From the IMG/VR virus record IMGVR_UViG_2698536308_000013: a stretch of DNA of 42,478 nt. One strand, written 5' to 3'. The position numbers and the translations under genes are program-made. This document shows positions 3,801 to 22,802 of this stretch, in pieces (within the stretch, counting starts at the first letter, position 1; each line of letters opens with the position of its first letter). Origin of the DNA: a virus. Its lineage: Duplodnaviria > Heunggongvirae > Uroviricota > Caudoviricetes. Below the pieces are notes generated by a model, which saw nothing but the letters and a program-made list of their open reading frames with translations, was not told where the DNA came from and made no database searches.

Positions 3801-4125
3801 TCAATTCCTCTGTGGTTTCATTAAGTTTACGGACAAGAAATTCATATTCTTCTTTATCAATAAGCCCTTTATCGAAAAATTTCTTTAATTCAGAATAGCG
3901 TCGACCGACAGTATCAATTGCGGCACCAACTGGATCAATAGCTGCTTTTAATTTTGCGAGCGCGTTCTTCTCATCTTCTGTTGCCTTAGTCACTTTCCCT
4001 GCGCTATTTGCAGCAGTTTCCCCAGCCTGCGTCATTTTGACTAATGAGGAGGTCAGATTGTCAGCATTATTTTTCGCTCCAGTGCTATCAATAATTATTG
4101 CGAGACGCGAGGTTTGCTCTGCCAT
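892..4125 (-). CDS. Tail tape measure protein, 1077 aa
   Basis: Very long ORF, N-terminal coiled-coil-rich region with repeated AKxxDE / QQxxNE heptads, Gly-rich hydrophobic middle segment, position between chaperone genes and gpM. Confidence 0.9.
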
Positions 4126-4140
4126 TTATTAAAACTCCTG

Positions 4141-4170
4141 ACAACAAAAAACCCACCGCGAAGTGGGTTT
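4141..4170 (-). terminator. Terminator-like hairpin just upstream of the tape measure start
   Basis: Plus strand aaaaaCCCACcgcgaaGTGGGttt; on the minus strand a 7-bp stem is followed by TTTTTTGTTG, about 20 nt before the tape measure RBS. Confidence 0.35.
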
Positions 4171-4290
4171 CAGGCGACATAATAGTAGATATAGCGATTA
4201 CGAGGCCACGCAATGCTTTTCTCCAGGAGCATCATCGATTTAATTAAAGACACCATCACATCTCTGTAACAGAGTGTACGTAATTAACAA

Positions 4291-4611
4291 CTACACACAC
4301 TGCTCCTGAAAATACTGGTCATCCAGTGCAAAGATCACTGCTTCAAATTCATCGCGCTCAATCAATACCGGATGAGTGGCTAAATATTCATTTATCTCTG
4401 TCAGAGATAAAGGCAAAGGCACCCCAGCCATTCCAGCATAACGTCGGGCACGGGATATTACCGAATAGGCGTACAACAACTCCTTAAGCACCGGGTCTAT
4501 TTCTGGTTCCGGTATCGGTGGCAACCTGAGTTTTTCTCGCTTCCATCTTGCCTTTTCCCCCCTTTCTCCCCCGAACTCCGATAACCACCGCTGGGCAGCT
4601 ATGGCTTTTTT
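4291..4611 (-). CDS. Tail assembly chaperone, T segment; -1 frame continuation that would be fused to gpG by programmed frameshift
   Basis: The -1 frame is open from the slippery site at the gpG 3' end down to 4291 and joins the tracked ORF 4291..4524 (…PPIPEPEIDPVLKELL…); layout matches lambda G/GT. Confidence 0.6.
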   Translation of the reverse strand, partial: KKAIAAQRWLSEFGGERGEKARWKREKLRLPPIPEPEIDPVLKELLYAYSVISRARRYAGMAGVPLPLSLTEINEYLATHPVLIERDEFEAVIFALDDQYFQEQCV

Positions 4612-5108: not shown

Positions 5109-6071
5109 TCAACTAATCGCCTCAGCACTGGCTTTTGCGATCACGGCAGCCGGGGAATTTTTTTTTCTGGTTATCGTAGGTGCTTCATCTGCTGCGGTAA
5201 TGCTCAATTGAACCTGGATAATGTCGCTATTACCCCCATCAGGCCATTCACCTGACACCTGAACCTTCGGGAAACTGAAAGTGTATGCCCCCTCTCCATT
5301 CGAAAGCGTGAAGCTGAACGGAACTGTTTCTCCAGTCAGTGTTTTACTCCAGATTTCCCACGCGGCTTTAGACCATGAAAGCGTCACCGTACCGGACGGT
5401 GTAAAAGTAGTCGGAATATTTGCTCCTGCATAAGGCGAGCCAGTCCCGATACAACGCTGTGTCTGGAGTTTGTTATCGAACTGAATATCAAAACTGTCGA
5501 TACAAAAACCGTTACCTCCGGCAACACCATTCAGGCTTACTGCTGAAACCTCCTTAAACGAATAACGTAGCTTTCCTGCACTATCCACAGGTTCGCCTTT
5601 GATAAAATTCGTATCATCGGCCTTTGATTCCCAGTCCAGTCCGGCAAAGGTTACGGTCGCTGTAATATCGCCGTCGTTAGGGATCTGCATTTTCCATGAG
5701 CCAACCTGCGCTCCTCTGACGACAGAGGCAATTCCGACATCGGACGCATAGGTCGCCAGAGAAAATGTTATTCGCTCATTCCCCATTGTCAGAGAATCGC
5801 CTGACCATTCCGCGCCGAAACAGGATGCAAGAAAATCATCATGTTGACCCCAGCGAAATTTGGTACCAACATCACCGCCGACATCCACAGTGCCAGGCGT
5901 CGCCCCCTGAGCCATCCGGGAGCCACCAATCTCATTATTTTCGCCTTTATTCTGGGTGGGTTTTACTCCCCAGCTTGTGCGTTTTAATAAACTCCAGTCA
6001 CCACTTGCTGGCGTAGTGCCTGCAACCGTCTCCCGGATAAATGCCGAGATAACCTTTGCACCTGAACTCAC
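5109..6071 (-). CDS. Major tail tube protein (gpV-like) with C-terminal Ig-like domain
   Basis: 320 aa, Ser/Thr/Gly-rich beta-type composition, position immediately upstream of the G/GT chaperones. Confidence 0.7.
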   Translation of the reverse strand: MSSGAKVISAFIRETVAGTTPASGDWSLLKRTSWGVKPTQNKGENNEIGGSRMAQGATPGTVDVGGDVGTKFRWGQHDDFLASCFGAEWSGDSLTMGNERITFSLATYASDVGIASVVRGAQVGSWKMQIPNDGDITATVTFAGLDWESKADDTNFIKGEPVDSAGKLRYSFKEVSAVSLNGVAGGNGFCIDSFDIQFDNKLQTQRCIGTGSPYAGANIPTTFTPSGTVTLSWSKAAWEIWSKTLTGETVPFSFTLSNGEGAYTFSFPKVQVSGEWPDGGNSDIIQVQLSITAADEAPTITRKKNSPAAVIAKASAEAIS

Positions 6072-6097
6072 AGGAGCCTCCTATGTCATTAATTGCG

Positions 6098-6490
6098 CTA
6101 GAGCGCGCGATATGGAATTTGAAGATTAAGCTGGAACCAGCCATTCTTTTCGCCAACGGCTATTGAGGAAACAGCCTGGTAACTGAGACGATCGTCATCC
6201 TGAAACTCAAACAGTTCCCGCAATTTATCGGCTGTCTCAGTAATGAGTTTTGAACCAGAACCTGCGGGGACAAATAACTGAATAATGATTATCCCCGTGC
6301 GATAAACAACCGGCCCCGCGCCAATTTCATTAACTCCAGCCTGCCCGGGAATATTACTTAACCGCGCCCAGATTAACTTACCGGAAGGATCGAACGTTGG
6401 CCCGTTCGGATACAATACGTCTTTTCCATCAATAATCGTCTGTGCCGTCATTCTGGAAATAACCGTATTTCTGATTTCAGTAAACTTCAT
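6098..6490 (-). CDS. Tail terminator-like protein (gpU / DUF3168-like)
   Basis: 130 aa ORF between the tail completion and tail tube genes; assignment by position and size. Confidence 0.5.
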   Translation of the reverse strand: MKFTEIRNTVISRMTAQTIIDGKDVLYPNGPTFDPSGKLIWARLSNIPGQAGVNEIGAGPVVYRTGIIIIQLFVPAGSGSKLITETADKLRELFEFQDDDRLSYQAVSSIAVGEKNGWFQLNLQIPYRAL

Positions 6491-15112: not shown

Positions 15113-15998
15113 TTGTCACCCCCATTGATATGCAGGGTGTCTTCTTCCTGTATTTTTCGTGAAGGATTTTTACTGCAGCGTTGTTCCAGGTGACCTGATG
15201 GTGAATGCGTTTATGACTGGCACCCATAAGTGAGATTTTTACGCACGACGGCGCATACATGACGGAGTAAAAACTTTTAACGTAGGTTCCGGAATCCAGA
15301 TACAGCTCGGTCATTCCGCCGCTGTTTTTCTGCGTCTGTTTCTGCCCTAACTGGACAGCACCGATCGTCATAAACAATTCACCACAGCGACCGAGATTCG
15401 TGTACGTATTCACATCCTCGTTAATGCGCCCCATGAATGAGAACGGTCGATCAACCGAACAGATAAAGCTGTTCATTGCCTTGCGTTTCACCCACGAAGC
15501 ATGGCCGCCATTGTCACCAAGAAAATCCCCGCCCTGCGACATAGCGATGGAAAGAGCAGGTATTGATTCGTAGTACGCAAGCATTTCAGAAAGGATCTCA
15601 TCCAGTTTCCTTATCGGGAAATAGGCCTGGTCATAGTTGCGATCCACCCGAAACTGGAACTCGTGATAATCATCATCGAGCTGAATGAAGTATTTACACC
15701 CGACCAGTTTTGCCTGGTCGAAACAGGCATTACGGGCGTAAAAAATTGAGCGGCGGTCACTAAAATTATCGGCTTCGTCAAAACGACTAGCAATATCGGC
15801 TTTGGAAAATACCAGCACCTGTTCACCAAATTCAGCCATGTACTGATGCCGTGTCTTATCTTCATCATCAACAACGATAAAAATTTTCCCGGTATAGCCA
15901 GCACGACGCAACGTCCGGTAAGTCAGAACTTTGTCCGGTCGCCCGTGAGTCAGAATAAAGGCGCAAAAATCATCACGCATATTCCTCCTCCCCGCCAT
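15048..15998 (-). CDS. GT-A fold glycosyltransferase-like protein, no predicted membrane segment
   Basis: N-terminal AFILTHGRPDKV...IFIVVDDEDKT resembles the family-2 glycosyltransferase signature; a DxD motif (FIQLDDDY) follows about 90 aa later. Confidence 0.45.
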   Translation of the reverse strand: MAGRRNMRDDFCAFILTHGRPDKVLTYRTLRRAGYTGKIFIVVDDEDKTRHQYMAEFGEQVLVFSKADIASRFDEADNFSDRRSIFYARNACFDQAKLVGCKYFIQLDDDYHEFQFRVDRNYDQAYFPIRKLDEILSEMLAYYESIPALSIAMSQGGDFLGDNGGHASWVKRKAMNSFICSVDRPFSFMGRINEDVNTYTNLGRCGELFMTIGAVQLGQKQTQKNSGGMTELYLDSGTYVKSFYSVMYAPSCVKISLMGASHKRIHHQVTWNNAAVKILHEKYRKKTPCISMGVTNDSVFESRVSGSVPDDCTTNR

Positions 15999-16761
15999 GC
16001 ATGATCTCCACCATGCGCTGCGTCATTCGGACAAATCCATTTTCAATAGCCTGCTGATAATCAATGATCACCAGCGCCGACTCCTCGAAAAGGCACTGAA
16101 TTTCAGCGGGGGCATGAGCGTAATAGTCCGCAATTCTGCTGAAATTAAACACCGTGTGACGTTCTGCTGCACACAGGAGGAATTTCTCAATATCAGGATC
16201 AAGGGACGCCGAACGTATCCGGCTGATCAGCTCCTGAGTTTTCGTATCGTCGTACAGTTCACTGATATCCGGTTTACCGCCTGACGGCTCATAAACAGGC
16301 GTATCAATTTTCGTCGTATACGGCTCCTCCTCATTTCCTGTACCGGGCAAAACATCCGTCAACAGTTCATCAATTTCTGCCGGGATGAAGCCTGTCAGGG
16401 AGACATCAAAATCAGCATTGATTAGGTCCGACAGCTCCATCCGCAACAGATCTTCATCCCAGCCAGCATTCATCGGCAGGCGATTATCTGCCAGGCGGTA
16501 CGCCTTTTTCTGCTCATCCGTCAGGCCAGACAGAACAATGACCGGAACAGAATCCATTTTGAGCATTTCAGCCGCCATAACACGACCGTGACCCGCAATA
16601 ATTTCGCCCTTTTCGTCAATCAGCACCGGATTAGTCCAGCCGAATTGCTTAATACTTTCTACCAGTTGTGCCACCTGCTCAGTACTGTGCGTCCTGGCGT
16701 TGTGCGCATACGGTGACAATTCTTGTAATGGGCGATAGACTATCTTTAATTTCTCGCTCAT
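15973..16761 (-). CDS. ParB-like nuclease domain protein (position of K-12 ynaK)
   Basis: N-terminal ParB/Srx-type signature (…NPVLIDEKGEIIAGHGRVMAA…), 262 aa. Confidence 0.7.
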   Translation of the reverse strand: MSEKLKIVYRPLQELSPYAHNARTHSTEQVAQLVESIKQFGWTNPVLIDEKGEIIAGHGRVMAAEMLKMDSVPVIVLSGLTDEQKKAYRLADNRLPMNAGWDEDLLRMELSDLINADFDVSLTGFIPAEIDELLTDVLPGTGNEEEPYTTKIDTPVYEPSGGKPDISELYDDTKTQELISRIRSASLDPDIEKFLLCAAERHTVFNFSRIADYYAHAPAEIQCLFEESALVIIDYQQAIENGFVRMTQRMVEIMHGGEEEYA

Positions 16762-16898
16762 ACAGCCTTGCTTTATGAATAAAACGCACCCCAGCAGCCA
16801 GTGCTACTGGGGGCGGAGGTGTTGCTGGTAAAGTTAGGTATTGGATCAATGAGTGAGTCAACATAATATTAAACTCACAATTATAAATCAGCCATATA

Positions 16899-18356
16899 TT
16901 AGGAGCGCCAAAAAAAACCTGAAAACAATATAATAACAGGATAAATTTCAAGGCGACCAAGAATCATAGCTATGCACATTAAATATTTTGCAATGTCATT
17001 AAGCACTCCGAATGACGATGCAGTAGCCCCAAAACCTAATCCCATATTATTAATACATGCAGCCACTGTTGCAAATGATGTAAGAAAATCATATCCCATA
17101 CCATTTAACACCAGTATAAAAAACACCGTGAAGAGAGTATAAAGAAAAAAGAAACTCCATACAGACCTCATTACACGATCTGTAACTATCTTCCCTCCTA
17201 CATTTACACTCAACAACGCTCTGGGATGAGAAAGCTGATTTATCTCGTGTTTGCTTTGTTTGAAAAGTATAAGAAATCGAAGTGACTTAATTCCACCACA
17301 GGTTGAACCTATACATCCCCCAAAGAAACTTGACAACAGCAAAAACACTATCGTGTGCGTGGGCCAGTTTGCATAATCCTGCGTAGCTAAACCATTATCA
17401 GTGAGCATGGAGCTGGCAAGAAAAAACGAATGAATAAAACTTCCATGCAAGTCATACATACCTATATGCCAGACCTGGAAAGAGGTAACAATGATCACCC
17501 CTAAGGCTATTAACAGAAAGAAACGAAGTTCAATATCTCTGATTAAAGGTTTTATCGTTTTTCTGCTAATAACAATATACCAAAGAGTGAAGTTGAAAGC
17601 CGATAGCAGGGAAAAAGAACCAGCCACCAGCTCAACCAAATAGTTATTAAAATATCCGATACTCTCGCTATGAGTTGAGAAACCACCAAGCGAAACTGTG
17701 GAAATCCCGTGACAAATAGCATCAAACAAAGGCATTCCTGCAAGTCTATAACAGACAATACAAGCAATACCTAATAAAGAATAAGTTATCCACAGTGTCC
17801 GTGACGTATCGGCCAGGCGGGGAGTGAGTTTGTCATCCTTAAATGGCCCCGGCATTTCTGACTGATAAAGCTTTGCACCACCAATACCCAATAATGGCAA
17901 TACTGCAACCGCCAGAACAATAACTCCTAAACCACCTATAAAATTTAACTGTGACCGATAGTACAAATATGCCCGAGGTAATGAACTAACATCATCAATT
18001 ACAGTTGCTCCTGTTGTTGTTATTCCAGAAACCCCTTCAAACAGAGCATCAATGAACGTTAAATTAAGTTCTGAGTCAATCCATAAAGGGAATGCACTAA
18101 TAACAGAAAACAAAATCCAAAACATTACAATTATAATAAACCCATCACGGGTACGTAATTGAATGCCAGATTTCTTAGTTGTATACCACGCTCCGCCACC
18201 AATGCAAAAAAATATAACGAAAGTTATAAAGAAAACGAACAGGCTTTTTTCTTTATAAAACAATGCTACAACCATTGGTGGCAACATTGAAAGACTATAG
18301 AGCCAAACCAGGAACCCACACATATGAGTAACAACTCTTACATGAGATGTATTCAT
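16899..18356 (-). CDS. trkG: Trk-system potassium uptake protein TrkG
   Basis: Polytopic membrane protein beginning MNTSHVRVVTHMCGFLVWLY as recalled for K-12 TrkG; low-GC gene next to Rz as in Rac. Confidence 0.9.
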   Translation of the reverse strand: MNTSHVRVVTHMCGFLVWLYSLSMLPPMVVALFYKEKSLFVFFITFVIFFCIGGGAWYTTKKSGIQLRTRDGFIIIVMFWILFSVISAFPLWIDSELNLTFIDALFEGVSGITTTGATVIDDVSSLPRAYLYYRSQLNFIGGLGVIVLAVAVLPLLGIGGAKLYQSEMPGPFKDDKLTPRLADTSRTLWITYSLLGIACIVCYRLAGMPLFDAICHGISTVSLGGFSTHSESIGYFNNYLVELVAGSFSLLSAFNFTLWYIVISRKTIKPLIRDIELRFFLLIALGVIIVTSFQVWHIGMYDLHGSFIHSFFLASSMLTDNGLATQDYANWPTHTIVFLLLSSFFGGCIGSTCGGIKSLRFLILFKQSKHEINQLSHPRALLSVNVGGKIVTDRVMRSVWSFFFLYTLFTVFFILVLNGMGYDFLTSFATVAACINNMGLGFGATASSFGVLNDIAKYLMCIAMILGRLEIYPVIILFSGFFWRS

Positions 18357-18493
18357 ATCTAAATATTCTTTCAATTATAACCACCTTGCTGCAATATTAT
18401 GATTATACTGTATAAAATTTAACTCCTCTTAGATCTTACTTCACTGTTCCTTATGAAACAATCATCAAAATGAATCATATTGTAGTTAAGATT

Positions 18494-18958: not shown

Positions 18959-19487
18959 TGTTGCCCCCACAAACAGACTTCACGCTCAATCTCACGACGA
19001 GTCATNNNNNNNNNNNNNNNNNNNNNNNNNNNNNNNNNNNNNNNCCTTTCCATTGCTTACCGCCAGCATATGTCCAGCGACGTAGCTGGTCACATGCGCC
19101 TTTGATATCGCCCTGGTTTATTTTGCGAAGAAGCGTCGATGTTCTGAAATTGCCAGCACCCACGTTGTAGACGAACGAGTACAGAGCGCCGCGCGTTGTT
19201 TCCGGTATATCGACTTTGATGTACGGGTTAATTTGTCTGGCAACCGTGGCAAGGTCTTTATTCAAGAGTGTTTTGCATTCTGCTTTGGTATACGTTTTAC
19301 CGAGCATGATGTCTTTTCCTGTATGCCCGTGACATACAGTCCATACACCAACAATATCTTTGTATGGTATGTAGCTGACACCTTCCAGGCCATCGTCACC
19401 ACTTGGGCCAGTGATTAACACTGATGCTATAGCAATTGCTCCGCCACCAATAGCAGCAGCAACGACTTTTCGTAATGATGGAGGCAT
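18957..19487 (-). CDS. SAR-type endolysin (phage 21 R-like lysozyme), interrupted by an N-gap
   Basis: N-terminal signal-anchor-release-like hydrophobic, Gly/Ala-rich segment ([18 protein letters not shown]); stop overlaps the Rz start; exact 3' portion unreadable because of N-run. Confidence 0.65.
19006..19044. other. Assembly gap, 39 N
   Basis: Run of N in the sequence. Confidence 1.
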
Positions 19488-19702
19488 TATTCACCTCTCG
19501 CAGCCTTGCGCTTATCTTCTTTAATCTTGAAATAAAGGTTTGTCAGGTACGTCAGCAGGCCAAATACCAGACTACCCAGCACACCGATTGCAGCCCACTG
19601 TGACGGAGTTACTCTATCGAGCAACTGTAAAAACCAGTAGCCAGCACTGCCTGCGGAGGTGCCGTAGGCAATGCCTGTTGAAATTTTGTCCATGGATTTC
19701 AT
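19487..19702 (-). CDS. Class II holin / pinholin (phage 21 S-like), 71 aa
   Basis: [26 protein letters not shown]..., two TM segments, dual-start motif MKSM, start overlaps the endolysin start. Confidence 0.8.
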
Positions 19703-19801
19703 AGCCTCACCTCCGCACGGAACGGATGGCATAGTTATTATGTGTAGGCTTTCAGACACATCAATCAGAGCCTTAATTGATATATATGCTGGAGACGATG
19801 C

Positions 19802-19828
19802 AATATAAAAAGCTCGCCGTAGCGAGCT
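19802..19828 (-). terminator. Terminator-like hairpin after the lipoprotein gene
   Basis: Perfect inverted repeat AGCTCGCcgtaGCGAGCT followed on the minus strand by TTTTATATT. Confidence 0.4.
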
Positions 19829-19953
19829 AATAAAATGTATTTCTCTGATATTATGTTTATTTGTATTAGCTCAGACTTGACATCACAGGTTTCGTATATA
19901 GAACATCATCAAATCTGTCAGTTTGCTATGAATGAGATATAGTAATTGAAGAG

Positions 19954-20349
19954 CTAACCTCGCATGTCAAAGCCAGATTTCTGAAAATCTCTGTAGACTT
20001 CCGGATTGTTGAAGGCCGGAAATTTGGCTTTATGAGCTGCGGACTTTATCGCTTCGCAATAGGCTTTATCACCGTTACTGGTAGATATTTTTAACGCCGT
20101 GCCATCCTGAGAGAATTCCATATGCAACCTGCATTTTTTCCCTTTCCAGTTATGCGGCTCATCAAGTTTGGCATTAATTGCAGCTCTGATTCCCCGCGCT
20201 TGCGCCCCCCATTCATCCTGATCATCCCAGCGTCCTGAACTGCAACTACCTGTAGCAGTAGTTTTGTGGCAATCTGAAGGGTGTAAAGGTGTGCATCCCG
20301 CAACAAAACCGACCCAAAAAGTCAACATAACGATTTTCTTTAATCCCAC
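19954..20349 (-). CDS. Predicted lipoprotein, moron, 131 aa
   Basis: Signal peptide with lipobox FVAGC; C-terminal region paralogous to the neighbouring lipoprotein (GKKC-L-M...PEVY--FQ). Confidence 0.6.
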   Translation of the reverse strand: MGLKKIVMLTFWVGFVAGCTPLHPSDCHKTTATGSCSSGRWDDQDEWGAQARGIRAAINAKLDEPHNWKGKKCRLHMEFSQDGTALKISTSNGDKAYCEAIKSAAHKAKFPAFNNPEVYRDFQKSGFDMRG

Positions 20350-20499
20350 TTCTTGCTCCTCAATCCATTAAAATCTCAGCAATAGTAGTTGTTACGTCCG
20401 CCACTGGCTCAGAGCTGACTATCCGCTAAATTTAGCTCAGTGCCGTAGCTGTGTCAGAACAAACCTAAGCCGAAACCGTTTATTACAAAACAATAAATA

Positions 20500-20928
20500 T
20501 CAGGGTTTAAAATCCAGCACCCCATTTTGAAATACTTTATATACTTCCGGCGAAGGGGGGGCAGGTATATCAGCATTCTTTATCGCATTCATCGCTTCAC
20601 GACATAAATCGAGGTCTCCACTTTCTCTTTTAACCTCCAGTAGAAGGCCATTCGGGGCCATATGCATTCTCAGTGTACACTCTTTTCCTGAATACTTACT
20701 CGCATCCCCGAACTGTTTTTCGATGGCGCTCTTGATTTGATGGGCATACAGACGGATATCCTCACTAACATCAGAAGTACGTTCAGATGAACTCACATAC
20801 TGTGTCTCTATTGCTTTATCGGAGTAATATGATGTACGGTCATGATAATTTGTCGATACAGCATCAGTGCACCCGATAATAATCCCACTAATAATCAACG
20901 TAAGAATTGATGCGCTACGAAAACCCAT
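20500..20928 (-). CDS. Predicted lipoprotein, moron, 142 aa
   Basis: Signal peptide with lipobox IIGC; shares a conserved C-terminal block with the 19954..20349 product. Confidence 0.6.
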   Translation of the reverse strand: MGFRSASILTLIISGIIIGCTDAVSTNYHDRTSYYSDKAIETQYVSSSERTSDVSEDIRLYAHQIKSAIEKQFGDASKYSGKECTLRMHMAPNGLLLEVKRESGDLDLCREAMNAIKNADIPAPPSPEVYKVFQNGVLDFKP

Positions 20929-21865
20929 TTTTCCTCACATATGTCATATAGTAAAGGATTATATATACCGTTGTTTTGGACGCTCAAACAGCGAATCAGA
21001 TCAAATAAAACGCACATTTGTTAACATTTACACAAAGTCTGCGTGGGATATTCTGAAAGAATATCCATAATGTGGAGAGAATCTATTGAAGTGCATGGTG
21101 CCGGGTGCCTCCCGGTGAACAAAATGTTCGTGATACCTGTCGGCGACAGAAAAGGTTAATGGTATCACCCCACCGCACAGGGGGATTCACCATGCAGGAG
21201 TTTTCTTAGCAAACTCACTGCGCGCCCGGCAACTCCCAACCACATAAAATGCGGAGTTTGTGGCATTTATGCATATAACTCGCAGGAATTATCTTAAAAA
21301 ACTGATGTCGATCCGGATTAAAAAGAAGCAGGTCATCATCAGATGACTGGAAAAAAGGAAAACAAAAAATACTCATCATACAGTTTTGATTGCAGGGATG
21401 AGCCTGCTATGCACAATATGCAGAATATAAGCAAGATAAAAATATGCAGGCATATTATTTCGGATCTTGTTATTAACACAACCTTTTTAATAATCATTTG
21501 GCATACAATAAACCAGCCCAAAAAGAACCGCCTAAACAGGCGGTTGGTCAATACAAAGGATGCTTCGTCTTTATTATAGTAATCTGAGGCGTCGGGTGTC
21601 TTGTATCAGACAACATATTGTCCCGCTAAACAGCGAATTACAAACCACCCTGCAATGATCTCTCATCTCATTTTATATGAGTTGACGACATCAGGATAAC
21701 GCATCATCAGCCCCTGCCAAGAAATATCAAAACTCCCGCCAGCAATGTGTTATCACAATATTGTAAAAAAAACACAGCACCGAAACTATAACTGGTCTCT
21801 GTTATAATTTGGAGCAGAAAGACCAGTTGCCCAACTAGCAGCATTCTCCCCTGCTTTCCTGACGT

Positions 21866-21892
21866 AAAAAAACCGCATTAAGCGGTTTTTTT
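21866..21892. terminator. Bidirectional intrinsic terminator downstream of Q (candidate tR')
   Basis: AAAAAAA-CCGC-attaa-GCGG-TTTTTTT: hairpin flanked by an A-run and a T-run, about 80 nt downstream of the Q stop. Confidence 0.6.
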
Positions 21893-21972
21893 ACGATGTC
21901 CATGTCTGCAATCCGCCTCGCGATACAGCTTTGCGAAGCATAGCAAAATTGAAGCAGTTTATACGTAAGAAA

Positions 21973-22515
21973 TCAAGCCATTTTCTCAGCAAATGATTCA
22001 CGCATGGGAATATATAGGGCATACTCAGCAACAGCTAACCAATTAGCAATCCGTTTTTCGCATGTGCTAAAACACCACTCTGGGTGTGCATCATTTAGCA
22101 ATTCAGCCATTTTGCGCTTAGTCATCCCCCGCCCTTCATAGCGTTGCCGGAGAATGCAAATCAATCCTGGATGCTCTGCCAGCACCTCACTTATGACTCG
22201 ATCAATACATAACGCCTCTGCATCAGTACAATGCGCCAGCCAGCTCTTTTGCTTGCCGTTGATCATCTCTCGCAAAAACGCTTCCAGCTCAGCTTTCTCT
22301 ATTCCCGCTTTTTTCATTCTGCGCAGGGCTTCATTAATGGCTGTTTTCGTCAGTTTTTTGGATGCCAACAACTGATTGAACATATTCCCTGACCTGCCAC
22401 CGCCAATATACGACCAGCGCCCCCACATACGTAGTTTTCCCTGAATCCAGACACTTTCCAGCGTGGTGAGGCGAAGGTGTTCTCCGCTTTTTCCTGTATT
22501 CGTTGGGTAAATCAT
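21973..22515 (-). CDS. Late-gene antitermination protein Q-like
   Basis: 180 aa, last gene of the nin-type block, followed by a promoter-like region and terminator upstream of lysis genes. Confidence 0.55.
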   Translation of the reverse strand: MIYPTNTGKSGEHLRLTTLESVWIQGKLRMWGRWSYIGGGRSGNMFNQLLASKKLTKTAINEALRRMKKAGIEKAELEAFLREMINGKQKSWLAHCTDAEALCIDRVISEVLAEHPGLICILRQRYEGRGMTKRKMAELLNDAHPEWCFSTCEKRIANWLAVAEYALYIPMRESFAEKMA

Positions 22516-22802
22516 AAATGACCTTTCTTTCTCCAGATTTCTTGTGTGCGAAAAACCCCTTCAGCATGCATCAGGCGCAATTCTTCTTTGGTGTAATCGC
22601 TGGTTTTTACCCGCCCGTCGATTAGATCGTGGCATGAGCTACAGGCTATCGCCGCCTGCATATCATGTGGTTTTGTCGCTGTTCCGCACGTCCCCGCCAG
22701 CCTGTAATGCGCCAGCACAGAGGTTTCGGGATTGTGATTGCAGTAGCCAGGGATTCTGATCTGGCACATCTGGCCTTTAGCCGCTTTACGTAAATTCACC
22801 AT
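22512..22802 (-). CDS. Nin-region protein (DUF1364-like, Cys/His-rich)
   Basis: 96 aa with CxxxxxC...CxxC...CSSCH pattern; translationally coupled to flanking genes. Confidence 0.45.
   Translation of the reverse strand: MVNLRKAAKGQMCQIRIPGYCNHNPETSVLAHYRLAGTCGTATKPHDMQAAIACSSCHDLIDGRVKTSDYTKEELRLMHAEGVFRTQEIWRKKGHL

Follow-up and report, generated by a model that had tools for sequence, protein, structure and literature searches.

Two adjacent genes in IMG/VR virus record IMGVR_UViG_2698536308_000013 (Caudoviricetes), whose whole length of 42,478 nucleotides (nt) was analysed and is called the window below, encode small proteins that end in TolA domain III (TolAIII), a domain that has been studied for decades and that group A colicins and filamentous phages share as their handle for entry. 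The 142-amino-acid (aa) protein is named LipoA here and the 131-aa protein LipoB. An initial annotation, made from the letters of the sequence, had described them as tandem paralogous lipoproteins between the late antiterminator gene Q and the holin gene, sharing a C-terminal block that it did not recognise, although the block is immediately identifiable as TolAIII in both proteins. With this identification, two unknown moron lipoproteins gain a specific testable mechanism. We propose that they are outer-membrane-tethered decoys for invaders that depend on TolA/TolB, which are the filamentous phages and the group A colicins, a reading that we judge to have about an even chance of being right.

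TolA domain III behind a lipoprotein signal

The open reading frame (ORF) of LipoA (20500..20928, minus strand) begins with ATG behind the Shine-Dalgarno sequence GAGGA, and that of LipoB (19954..20349, minus strand) with GTG after GAGGAG-N6, where RefSeq/PGAP places the start at Met8 instead; both ORFs lie where the initial annotation had put them. The profile search that it had recommended matched both proteins to Pfam PF06519, the TolA C-terminal domain, above the gathering cut-off of 25 bits (LipoA, E 2.4e-23, 82.6 bits; LipoB, E 1.3e-14, 54.6 bits), and the GKxC.L.M, PEVY and FQ motifs noted in both are a genuine shared block. The nearest solved chains are those of E. coli TolAIII (1s62, 3qdp, 2x9a and 1tol; E 5e-28 for LipoA, 5e-9 for LipoB), and identity to the K-12 TolA domain is about 60% for LipoA and about 34% for LipoB. 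The AlphaFold models of both proteins begin with 41-50 residues of low confidence, followed by a domain with a predicted local distance difference test score (pLDDT) of at least 90 (LipoA, aa 51-142, 20778-20503; LipoB, aa 45-131, 20217-19957). Foldseek superimposed the LipoA domain on 2x9a_B with a target template-modelling score (TMt) of 0.96 and a root-mean-square deviation (rmsd) of 0.6 Å, and the LipoB domain on 3qdp with TMt 0.92 and rmsd 1.1 Å; the TolAIII alpha/beta fold, with its three-stranded sheet and free beta3 edge strand, is predicted in both. A PHROGs search returned family 5772 only, whose function is unannotated.

The remainder of TolA is missing. Neither protein has the TolAI inner-membrane helix, the N-terminus being a lipoprotein signal peptide, and the helical domain II is also absent: LipoA has 142 aa and LipoB 131, whereas TolA has 421, and there are only 25-30 residues from the lipid-bearing cysteine to the domain. 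Models of full-length TolA were matched only over their last ~95 positions (293-386 of 387), and scores against NF007065 (107.8 for LipoA, 53.7 for LipoB) are below its cut-off of 213. Lacking the TolAI helix and domain II, the two proteins cannot couple to TolQR and the proton-motive force, and the idea that they functionally replace TolA was ruled out because domains I and II are missing. They thus share with E. coli TolAIII (PF06519; 1TOL, 1S62, 2X9A, 3QDP/3QDR) the domain, the fold, the disulfide cysteines and D418, with an identical beta3 strand in LipoA, whereas TolA itself has an inner-membrane anchor and a helical domain, is coupled to TolQR and is encoded in the tol-pal operon. LipoA and LipoB are prophage-borne, encoded outside an operon of the ybgC-tolQRA-tolB-pal type (K-12 being the comparison), and have a predicted outer-membrane lipid anchor.

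That anchor was predicted with a PROSITE-style lipobox rule (charged n-region, hydrophobic h-region, [LVI][ASTVI][GAS]C, cysteine at position 15-35). Both proteins pass it, LipoA with a signal peptide of aa 1-19 and lipid Cys20 in IIIG/C-TD (codon 20871-20869) and LipoB with a signal peptide of aa 1-18 and lipid Cys19 in VAG/C-TP (codon 20295-20293), which agrees with the lipoboxes read by the initial annotation, for which it had advised a formal lipoprotein prediction. The lipobox is kept in 112 of 120 LipoB-family clusters and 32 of 46 LipoA-family clusters, and a lipoprotein signal opens every mobile version in an alignment that sets E. coli TolAIII beside prophage variants and plasmid and chromosomal copies (13 sequences from mobile elements and hosts). 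Aspartate at position +2, directly after the lipid-bearing cysteine, signals avoidance of the Lol pathway; this residue is threonine in both proteins and alanine or serine in their relatives, never the aspartate retention signal, so that sorting to the outer membrane is predicted and LipoA and LipoB are probably outer-membrane lipoproteins.

The tethers that join lipid and domain differ between the two. That of LipoA (aa 21-50) is rich in serine, threonine and tyrosine and of low model confidence. The LipoB tether (aa 19-48, 20206-20295, minus strand) is hyper-conserved and contains C-x7-C-x8-C and SSGRWDDQDEWG, and the segment from lipid cysteine to domain reads CAPLHPSGCHKTTATGSCSSGRWDDQDEWG. 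Among 115 cluster representatives from six genera its conservation is 0.97 against 0.93 for the TolAIII domain, the ratio of nonsynonymous to synonymous substitution rates (dN/dS) in it is 0.04-0.16, and its AlphaFold pLDDT is below 50. Being better conserved than the domain that it carries, it is evidently no passive linker, and it may form a second binding epitope. It holds an extra pair of cysteines and a double-tryptophan acidic motif that loosely resembles the TolB box of colicins (ColE9 GASDGSGWSSENNPW), without the conserved aspartate and with a Trp-Trp spacing of 6 rather than 7. Judged by this loose likeness to the colicin TolB box (DGSGWSSENNPW), the tether, with its C-x8-C and SSGRWDDQDEWG elements, may capture TolB too and so make LipoB a bivalent trap.

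TolAIII is the globular tip of TolA, and TolB, the N1 domain of filamentous-phage g3p (g3p-N1) and colicins A and N bind it via beta-strand addition. Strand beta3 (L417-D418-F419-K420-P421) is the edge joined by g3p-N1, colicin N (ColN) and the TolB N-terminus, and a single proline at D418 or K420 abolishes ColN and g3p binding and causes a complete tol phenotype (PMC4339652). The C-terminus of LipoA, LDFKP, is identical to this strand, and that of LipoB, FDMRG, retains the aspartate and the beta-forming character. D418 is invariant across all mobile variants in the alignment, and the disulfide cysteines (E. coli C363-C388) are invariant across its 13 sequences, the bond itself being predicted. 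Colicin A (ColA) binds the opposite edge of TolAIII, at L375-P380, K368, K379, K396 and L392 (PMC3365938). These contact positions are mostly kept in LipoA (LLEVKR/H/K/K/M) and mostly changed in LipoB (ALKIST/E/S/H/K). By alignment, then, LipoA retains both known E. coli TolAIII binding edges and LipoB has diverged at both.

TolA and TonB_2 were the only Pfam families matched by the pair, TonB_2 by LipoA (E 5.6e-5), in keeping with the view of the initial annotation that the proteins are not Bor, Cor or spanins. This match, with TonB C-terminal domains as the next structural neighbours after TolAIII, brings in the alternative that the lipoproteins bind TonB boxes in the periplasm and block TonB-dependent receptors, shutting out T1, phi80-like phages and group B colicins, much as Cor, an outer-membrane lipoprotein of lambdoid phages for superinfection exclusion, and Llp of T5 block competitors from the periplasmic side. 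Cor and Llp are likewise small phage outer-membrane lipoproteins; they differ from LipoA and LipoB in having unrelated sequences and folds and in plugging the receptor FhuA, whereas LipoA and LipoB would mimic a co-receptor and titrate the invader. The likeness in structure of TolA-TolB and TonB-TonB-box complexes (review PMC7391070) and the divergence of LipoB at TolA-specific contact residues would suit a receptor blocker, as would the reported block of FhuA by Llp (bioRxiv 10.64898/2026.03.26.714494). The domains, however, resemble TolAIII far more than they do TonB (60% and 34% identity to TolA; TM 0.9 versus 0.4-0.5), and on a Klebsiella plasmid described below a separate TonB C-terminal domain stands beside the TolAIII one, which argues that the two folds do different jobs. 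We therefore consider TonB-receptor blocking quite improbable.

Mobility, distribution and selection of the pair

Comparison with sibling phages indicated that the pair is variably present among similar phages and can have unrelated flanks. Phage vB_EcoS-683R6 shares the DUF1367-YbcO-Q and holin-R-Rz-TrkG backbone and has tRNA-Thr and tRNA-Gly in the slot instead, and mEp460_ev081 carries the same cassette, at 99% identity, behind a different Q and ahead of a different endolysin. The homology to mEp460_ev081 starts within an STnc100 repeat upstream of the pair (21039..21225, minus strand; Rfam, 86.6 bits), with the recombination joint inside it at about 21119. On these alignments the LipoA-LipoB pair is a mobile cassette that looks like a moron. 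STnc100 was also located at L002 5444-5634 and L004 1966-4894, and five copies were seen downstream of a LipoA variant in a Stx-phage-like prophage; such ~200-nt repeats of lambdoid late regions may be joints for the shuffling of cargo modules.

Of 5426 complete E. coli genomes, 774 (about 14%) contained at least 80% of the cassette, nearly always at 99% identity or more, and a tblastn search of 50,697 phage records found one carrier, mEp460_ev081; the pair is thus common in prophages and almost absent from sequenced virions. LipoA variants of 66-74% identity are found on their own in prophages of the Qin-like and Stx-phage-like kinds, between Q or tRNA genes and nanS-p or holin. The comparison with the toxin position of Stx phages drawn by the initial annotation is therefore literally true for this variant, which in a Stx-phage-like prophage lies between the Q/tRNA genes and the nanS-p esterase gene.

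LipoB has travelled further. Homologues of about 88% aa identity occur on about 600 Escherichia/Shigella plasmids in PLSDB, where the gene is the third after nikA-nikB, 68 nt downstream of the nikB relaxase gene, on IncK2/Z and IncI-gamma/K1 conjugative plasmids of type MPF_I (loci L006, L017 and L019, at 3965-4396 or 5965-6396). On the pO157-type plasmid NZ_CP044146.1 (locus L003, 7003-7434) the homologue adjoins a truncated nikB, near toxB. Solitary chromosomal homologues stand amid housekeeping genes in Enterobacter and, in Serratia marcescens (loci L012/L013, 7001-9736), beside GmrSD_N and HEPN genes in a defence-island-like setting, and homologues were also recorded in Citrobacter, Klebsiella and Raoultella genomes.

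A related arrangement was found on the 10-kb Klebsiella ColRNAI plasmid NZ_CP031718.1 (locus L005, 4905-5638), where a TolAIII lipoprotein gene is next to one for a Sec-secreted TonB C-terminal domain and the two adjoin the operon of a cloacin-DF13-like rRNase bacteriocin, which includes its immunity and lysis genes. This plasmid would hold decoys for both import machines alongside one bacteriocin. The TolA-like genes of such Klebsiella cloacin/klebicin ColRNAI plasmids (PMC10269471) likewise encode a TolAIII-only lipoprotein, about 27% identical to LipoB; they belong to another subfamily and differ in being paired with the secreted TonB domain and a bacteriocin operon, not with phage lysis genes. 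On a Klebsiella IncFII/MPF_I plasmid (locus L007, 5217-6246) a TolAIII lipoprotein gene directly follows that of a secreted thioredoxin-fold CxxC protein, which may aid disulfide formation in TolAIII. When 1.84 billion cluster representatives were searched with a profile, 573 matched. The best 150 include 78 with a length of 100-170 aa, of which at least 51 satisfy the strict lipobox rule (50%-identity clusters), indicating that exported TolAIII-only proteins are a large class.

Across prophage, plasmid and chromosomal copies the dN/dS of LipoB is 0.06-0.12, a sign of strong purifying selection, and that of the LipoA variants is 0.33-0.35, values that identify both as functional genes. The homology of the two proteins extends from end to end (BLASTP E 2e-18, 29% identity), so that the earlier description as tandem paralogues stands as regards kinship; an origin by in-situ tandem duplication was ruled out by the saturation of synonymous sites between them and by their separate occurrence as distinct lineages.

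The domain identity was already present in RefSeq. PGAP gives LipoB the product name 'cell envelope integrity TolA C-terminal domain-containing protein', and labels LipoA (WP_000506936.1) as 'tolA' with the name of the full-length product, since its score against TIGR02794 exceeds the cut-off (75.6 versus 59.45). The latter is an over-annotation and could mislead gene counts and pangenome analyses. In the full-text literature searched, these genes appear only as an incidental 'TolA protein' entry in genome tables (PMC6854850) and as TolA/Ton-like genes mentioned, without study, on a cloacin-like plasmid (PMC10269471). The name 'tolA', with an alignment limited to the 3' end of tolA, might suggest inert debris of a captured tolA gene. 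Against such debris stand the purpose-built lipoprotein signal of each gene, its good Shine-Dalgarno sequence, a frame that is intact in hundreds of genomes, dN/dS of 0.06-0.35, domains confidently folded in the models and the same architecture in at least 51 of the 78 short clusters among the top-ranked matches, and we give this explanation almost no credence.

As a transcription unit the pair is laid out, on sequence features, as a promoter candidate, LipoA, LipoB and a terminator, which is the classic moron layout (PMC3594210). The sigma-70-like promoter candidate (20958..20987, minus strand) reads TTGAGC-18 nt-TATAAT, with 10/12 matches, 30 nt upstream of the LipoA ATG. The spacer between LipoA and LipoB has no significant structure (z -0.8), and with no terminator between them the two genes are probably co-transcribed. 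The hairpin that the initial annotation had assigned to one of the genes follows the 131-aa gene as a canonical intrinsic terminator (19811..19828, minus strand; AGCUCGC-UACG-GCGAGCU plus a U-run; -13 kcal/mol, z -2.2), with a 7-bp GC-rich stem and UACG loop, which closes the unit and leaves about 52 nt to the start of the holin gene.

Slot and anatomy recall lambda bor, and lambda Bor and late-region morons such as stx and the nmpC/lc porin gene are likewise late-operon cargo, variably present, with their own terminator and probably their own promoter; Bor is a lipoprotein too, without sequence relation to LipoA or LipoB and with another proposed benefit. The pair might accordingly be an envelope-fitness or virulence moron that modulates Tol-Pal or Pal/TolB and thereby resistance to bile, detergent or serum, or vesiculation. 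A homologue on the virulence plasmid pO157, chromosomal copies amid housekeeping genes in Enterobacter and on a metagenomic contig, and conservation of the LipoB tether above that of its domain, which suggests a conserved host partner, would fit. Experimental precedent, however, is all of tolerance plus leakiness, with no known route from a non-energised TolAIII to envelope integrity, and this explanation leaves the link with conjugative-transfer and bacteriocin modules unexplained. We regard it as improbable.

Proposed decoy action and possible envelope loosening

In the proposed decoy mechanism, non-energised TolAIII would sit at the inner face of the outer membrane, where colicin translocation domains and phage g3p emerge, and would capture these translocation domains or g3p-N1, perhaps also the TolB N-terminus, before energised TolA is reached. 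Import would stall, and the lysogen would become tolerant to group A colicins and bacteriocins and to TolA-dependent filamentous phages. The two copies would probably cover different ligands. Once the phage grows lytically, read-through driven by Q would bring expression to a far higher level, which could weaken Tol-Pal as well.

Several observations argue for this mechanism, beginning with the retention of the binding edges by LipoA. Blocking the same interaction from the other side protects cells: periplasmic g3p-N1/pIII confers colicin A resistance and a 4-log fall in phage uptake (PMC10424213). The affinity of TolAIII is about 1 µM for ColN and g3p and about 40 µM for TolB (PMC4339652), so that a decoy would titrate invaders preferentially and, at modest dose, do little damage to Tol-Pal. 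Laboratory periplasmic TolAIII or g3p-N1 constructs hit the same interaction hub; they are artificial, soluble and overexpressed, whereas LipoA and LipoB are natural, predicted to be lipid-tethered, present as two diverged versions and selected on mobile elements. The carriers, moreover, gain from survival of the host and not from its lysis, most clearly the conjugative plasmids with I-type pili, and the pili of I-complex plasmids are the kind used by IF1, the phage whose g3p binds TolA-C (PDB 2x9a). A terminator ahead of the holin gene, and a sibling phage in which the pair is dispensable, also favour cargo expressed in the lysogen over a lysis function.

A number of points weigh against the decoy. 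Most known ligand-contact side chains are changed in LipoB, and its ligand may therefore differ. Levengood-Freyermuth and co-workers reportedly found in 1993 that an excess of TolAIII in the periplasm renders cells tolerant to colicins but also leaky, and Wan and Baneyx are said to have described in 1998 the release of periplasmic proteins on TolAIII co-overexpression (cited in PMC2689190); leakiness of this kind may make a decoy costly. The region shows no enrichment of promoter-like sites over shuffled sequence (11 versus 7.2 ± 2.6 by chance), so that the promoter ahead of LipoA is a candidate only. A scan of both proteins against PADLOC-DB 2.0 gave no match at E <=1, and no functional study of these lipoproteins was found in the full-text literature, subscription journals being largely unsearched. 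Finally, a function in release would be equally consistent with a position directly upstream of the holin gene and, on the Klebsiella plasmid, with a TolAIII lipoprotein gene that neighbours the lysis gene of a colicin.

Release is accordingly the main alternative. Here the tethered TolAIII, made in large amounts from the Q-antiterminated late transcript, would titrate the TolB N-terminus, act as a dominant negative on Tol-Pal and loosen the outer membrane, with blebbing, leakiness and vesicles, so that lysis and the escape of virions are speeded or completed; bacteriocin plasmids would gain easier release of their toxin in this way. The genes run in the direction of the late operon, on its transcription path, and are immediately upstream of holin in four prophage contexts, and the Klebsiella plasmid has its TolAIII lipoprotein near a cloacin-like operon with a lysis gene. 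The leakiness said to follow TolAIII overproduction would also fit, as would the full tol phenotype caused by TolA beta3 mutations that block TolB binding (PMC4339652). Set against these, a canonical terminator stands between the pair and the holin gene, and a sibling phage with the same lysis cassette lacks the pair, which argues that lysis can do without it. The window already encodes a complete set of Rz/Rz1 spanins, holin, lysozyme, Rz and Rz1 having separate genes there, and neither LipoA nor LipoB has homology to a known lysis component (holin, endolysin or Rz/Rz1) in Pfam searches. Homologues in nikAB operons and as solitary chromosomal genes are under purifying selection, in settings where chronic envelope damage would be costly, and the TolB-TolA interaction is weak, at about 40 µM. 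A role as release helper thus seems unlikely to us, without being negligible. The decoy and release readings are compatible, since the same proteins could be protective at a low level and loosen the envelope once Q drives their expression.

The decoy reading can be extended to a widespread immunity class of mobile elements, in which lipid-tethered or secreted TolAIII-only proteins would act as co-receptor decoys on prophages, I-complex plasmids, pO157 and bacteriocin plasmids, with LipoB as a bivalent trap. We put this extension forward tentatively, as somewhat doubtful. Under it, the nikAB-operon copy on I-complex plasmids and pO157 would offset the vulnerability to pilus-specific filamentous phages that the plasmids create by their own pili, and bacteriocin plasmids would pair a TolAIII decoy with a TonB C-terminal-domain decoy.

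Late-region context and wider meaning

The minus-strand gene order around the pair is DUF1367 gene, YbcO nuclease gene, Q, about 1 kb without a long ORF, LipoA, LipoB, holin, lysozyme, Rz/Rz1 and TrkG. The Q-like late antiterminator gene (21973..22515, minus strand) encodes a DUF1133 protein with a borderline Phage_antitermQ match, and the phage-21-type holin gene (essD; 19487..19759, minus strand) is the first of the lysis cassette and lies within the block common to mEp460_ev081. About 100 nt after the Q stop is a tR'-like terminator (21866..21892, minus strand; A7-CCGC-TTAAT-GCGG-T7), which was read by eye from the alignment and not listed by the terminator scanner. The block from Q to this terminator is conserved with vB_EcoS-683R6, and two further phages have a terminator at the equivalent place; we infer that the region 21892-21866 is PR'/tR'. 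With these boundaries, the slot between tR' and holin to which the initial annotation had assigned the genes is borne out. A second strong intrinsic terminator (21545-21526, minus strand; AACCGCC-UGUUUA-GGCGGUU plus a U-run) had been considered as tR' and was replaced by the conserved one after alignment with the sibling phages. Within about 30 nt before it is a promoter-like site, AAGACA-18-TATAAT (10/12), and together, within 21518-21602 (minus strand), site and terminator could yield a very short RNA or provide a second late-operon terminator.

A scan of the window for tRNA genes found none, whereas sibling phages have tRNAs in the Q-to-holin slot. Directly after Rz/Rz1, genes for a TrkG potassium transporter and a ParB/Srx-like protein (15973-18374, minus strand) form a second cargo block adjoining the lysis cassette, the same as in the Rac prophage and vB_EcoS-683R6. 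The sequence of the endolysin gene (19002-19487) is interrupted by a 39-N run at 19006-19044; NZ_CP047658.1, which is 100% identical over 19400-22600, has an endolysin gene split by IS2.

If the dominant-negative reading is true, LipoA and LipoB would be the first phage-encoded Tol-Pal inhibitors. If the decoy reading is true, natural outer-membrane TolAIII decoys would amount to a form of immunity that today's defence catalogues lack, and the third gene of the nikAB operon would have a reason. Carriers are common: they include about 14% of the complete E. coli genomes, plasmids of the I-complex and pO157 types by the several hundred, and many chromosomes of Enterobacteriaceae. The effect could reach colicin- and phage-based therapeutics, phage-display hosts and the competition among E. 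coli in the gut.

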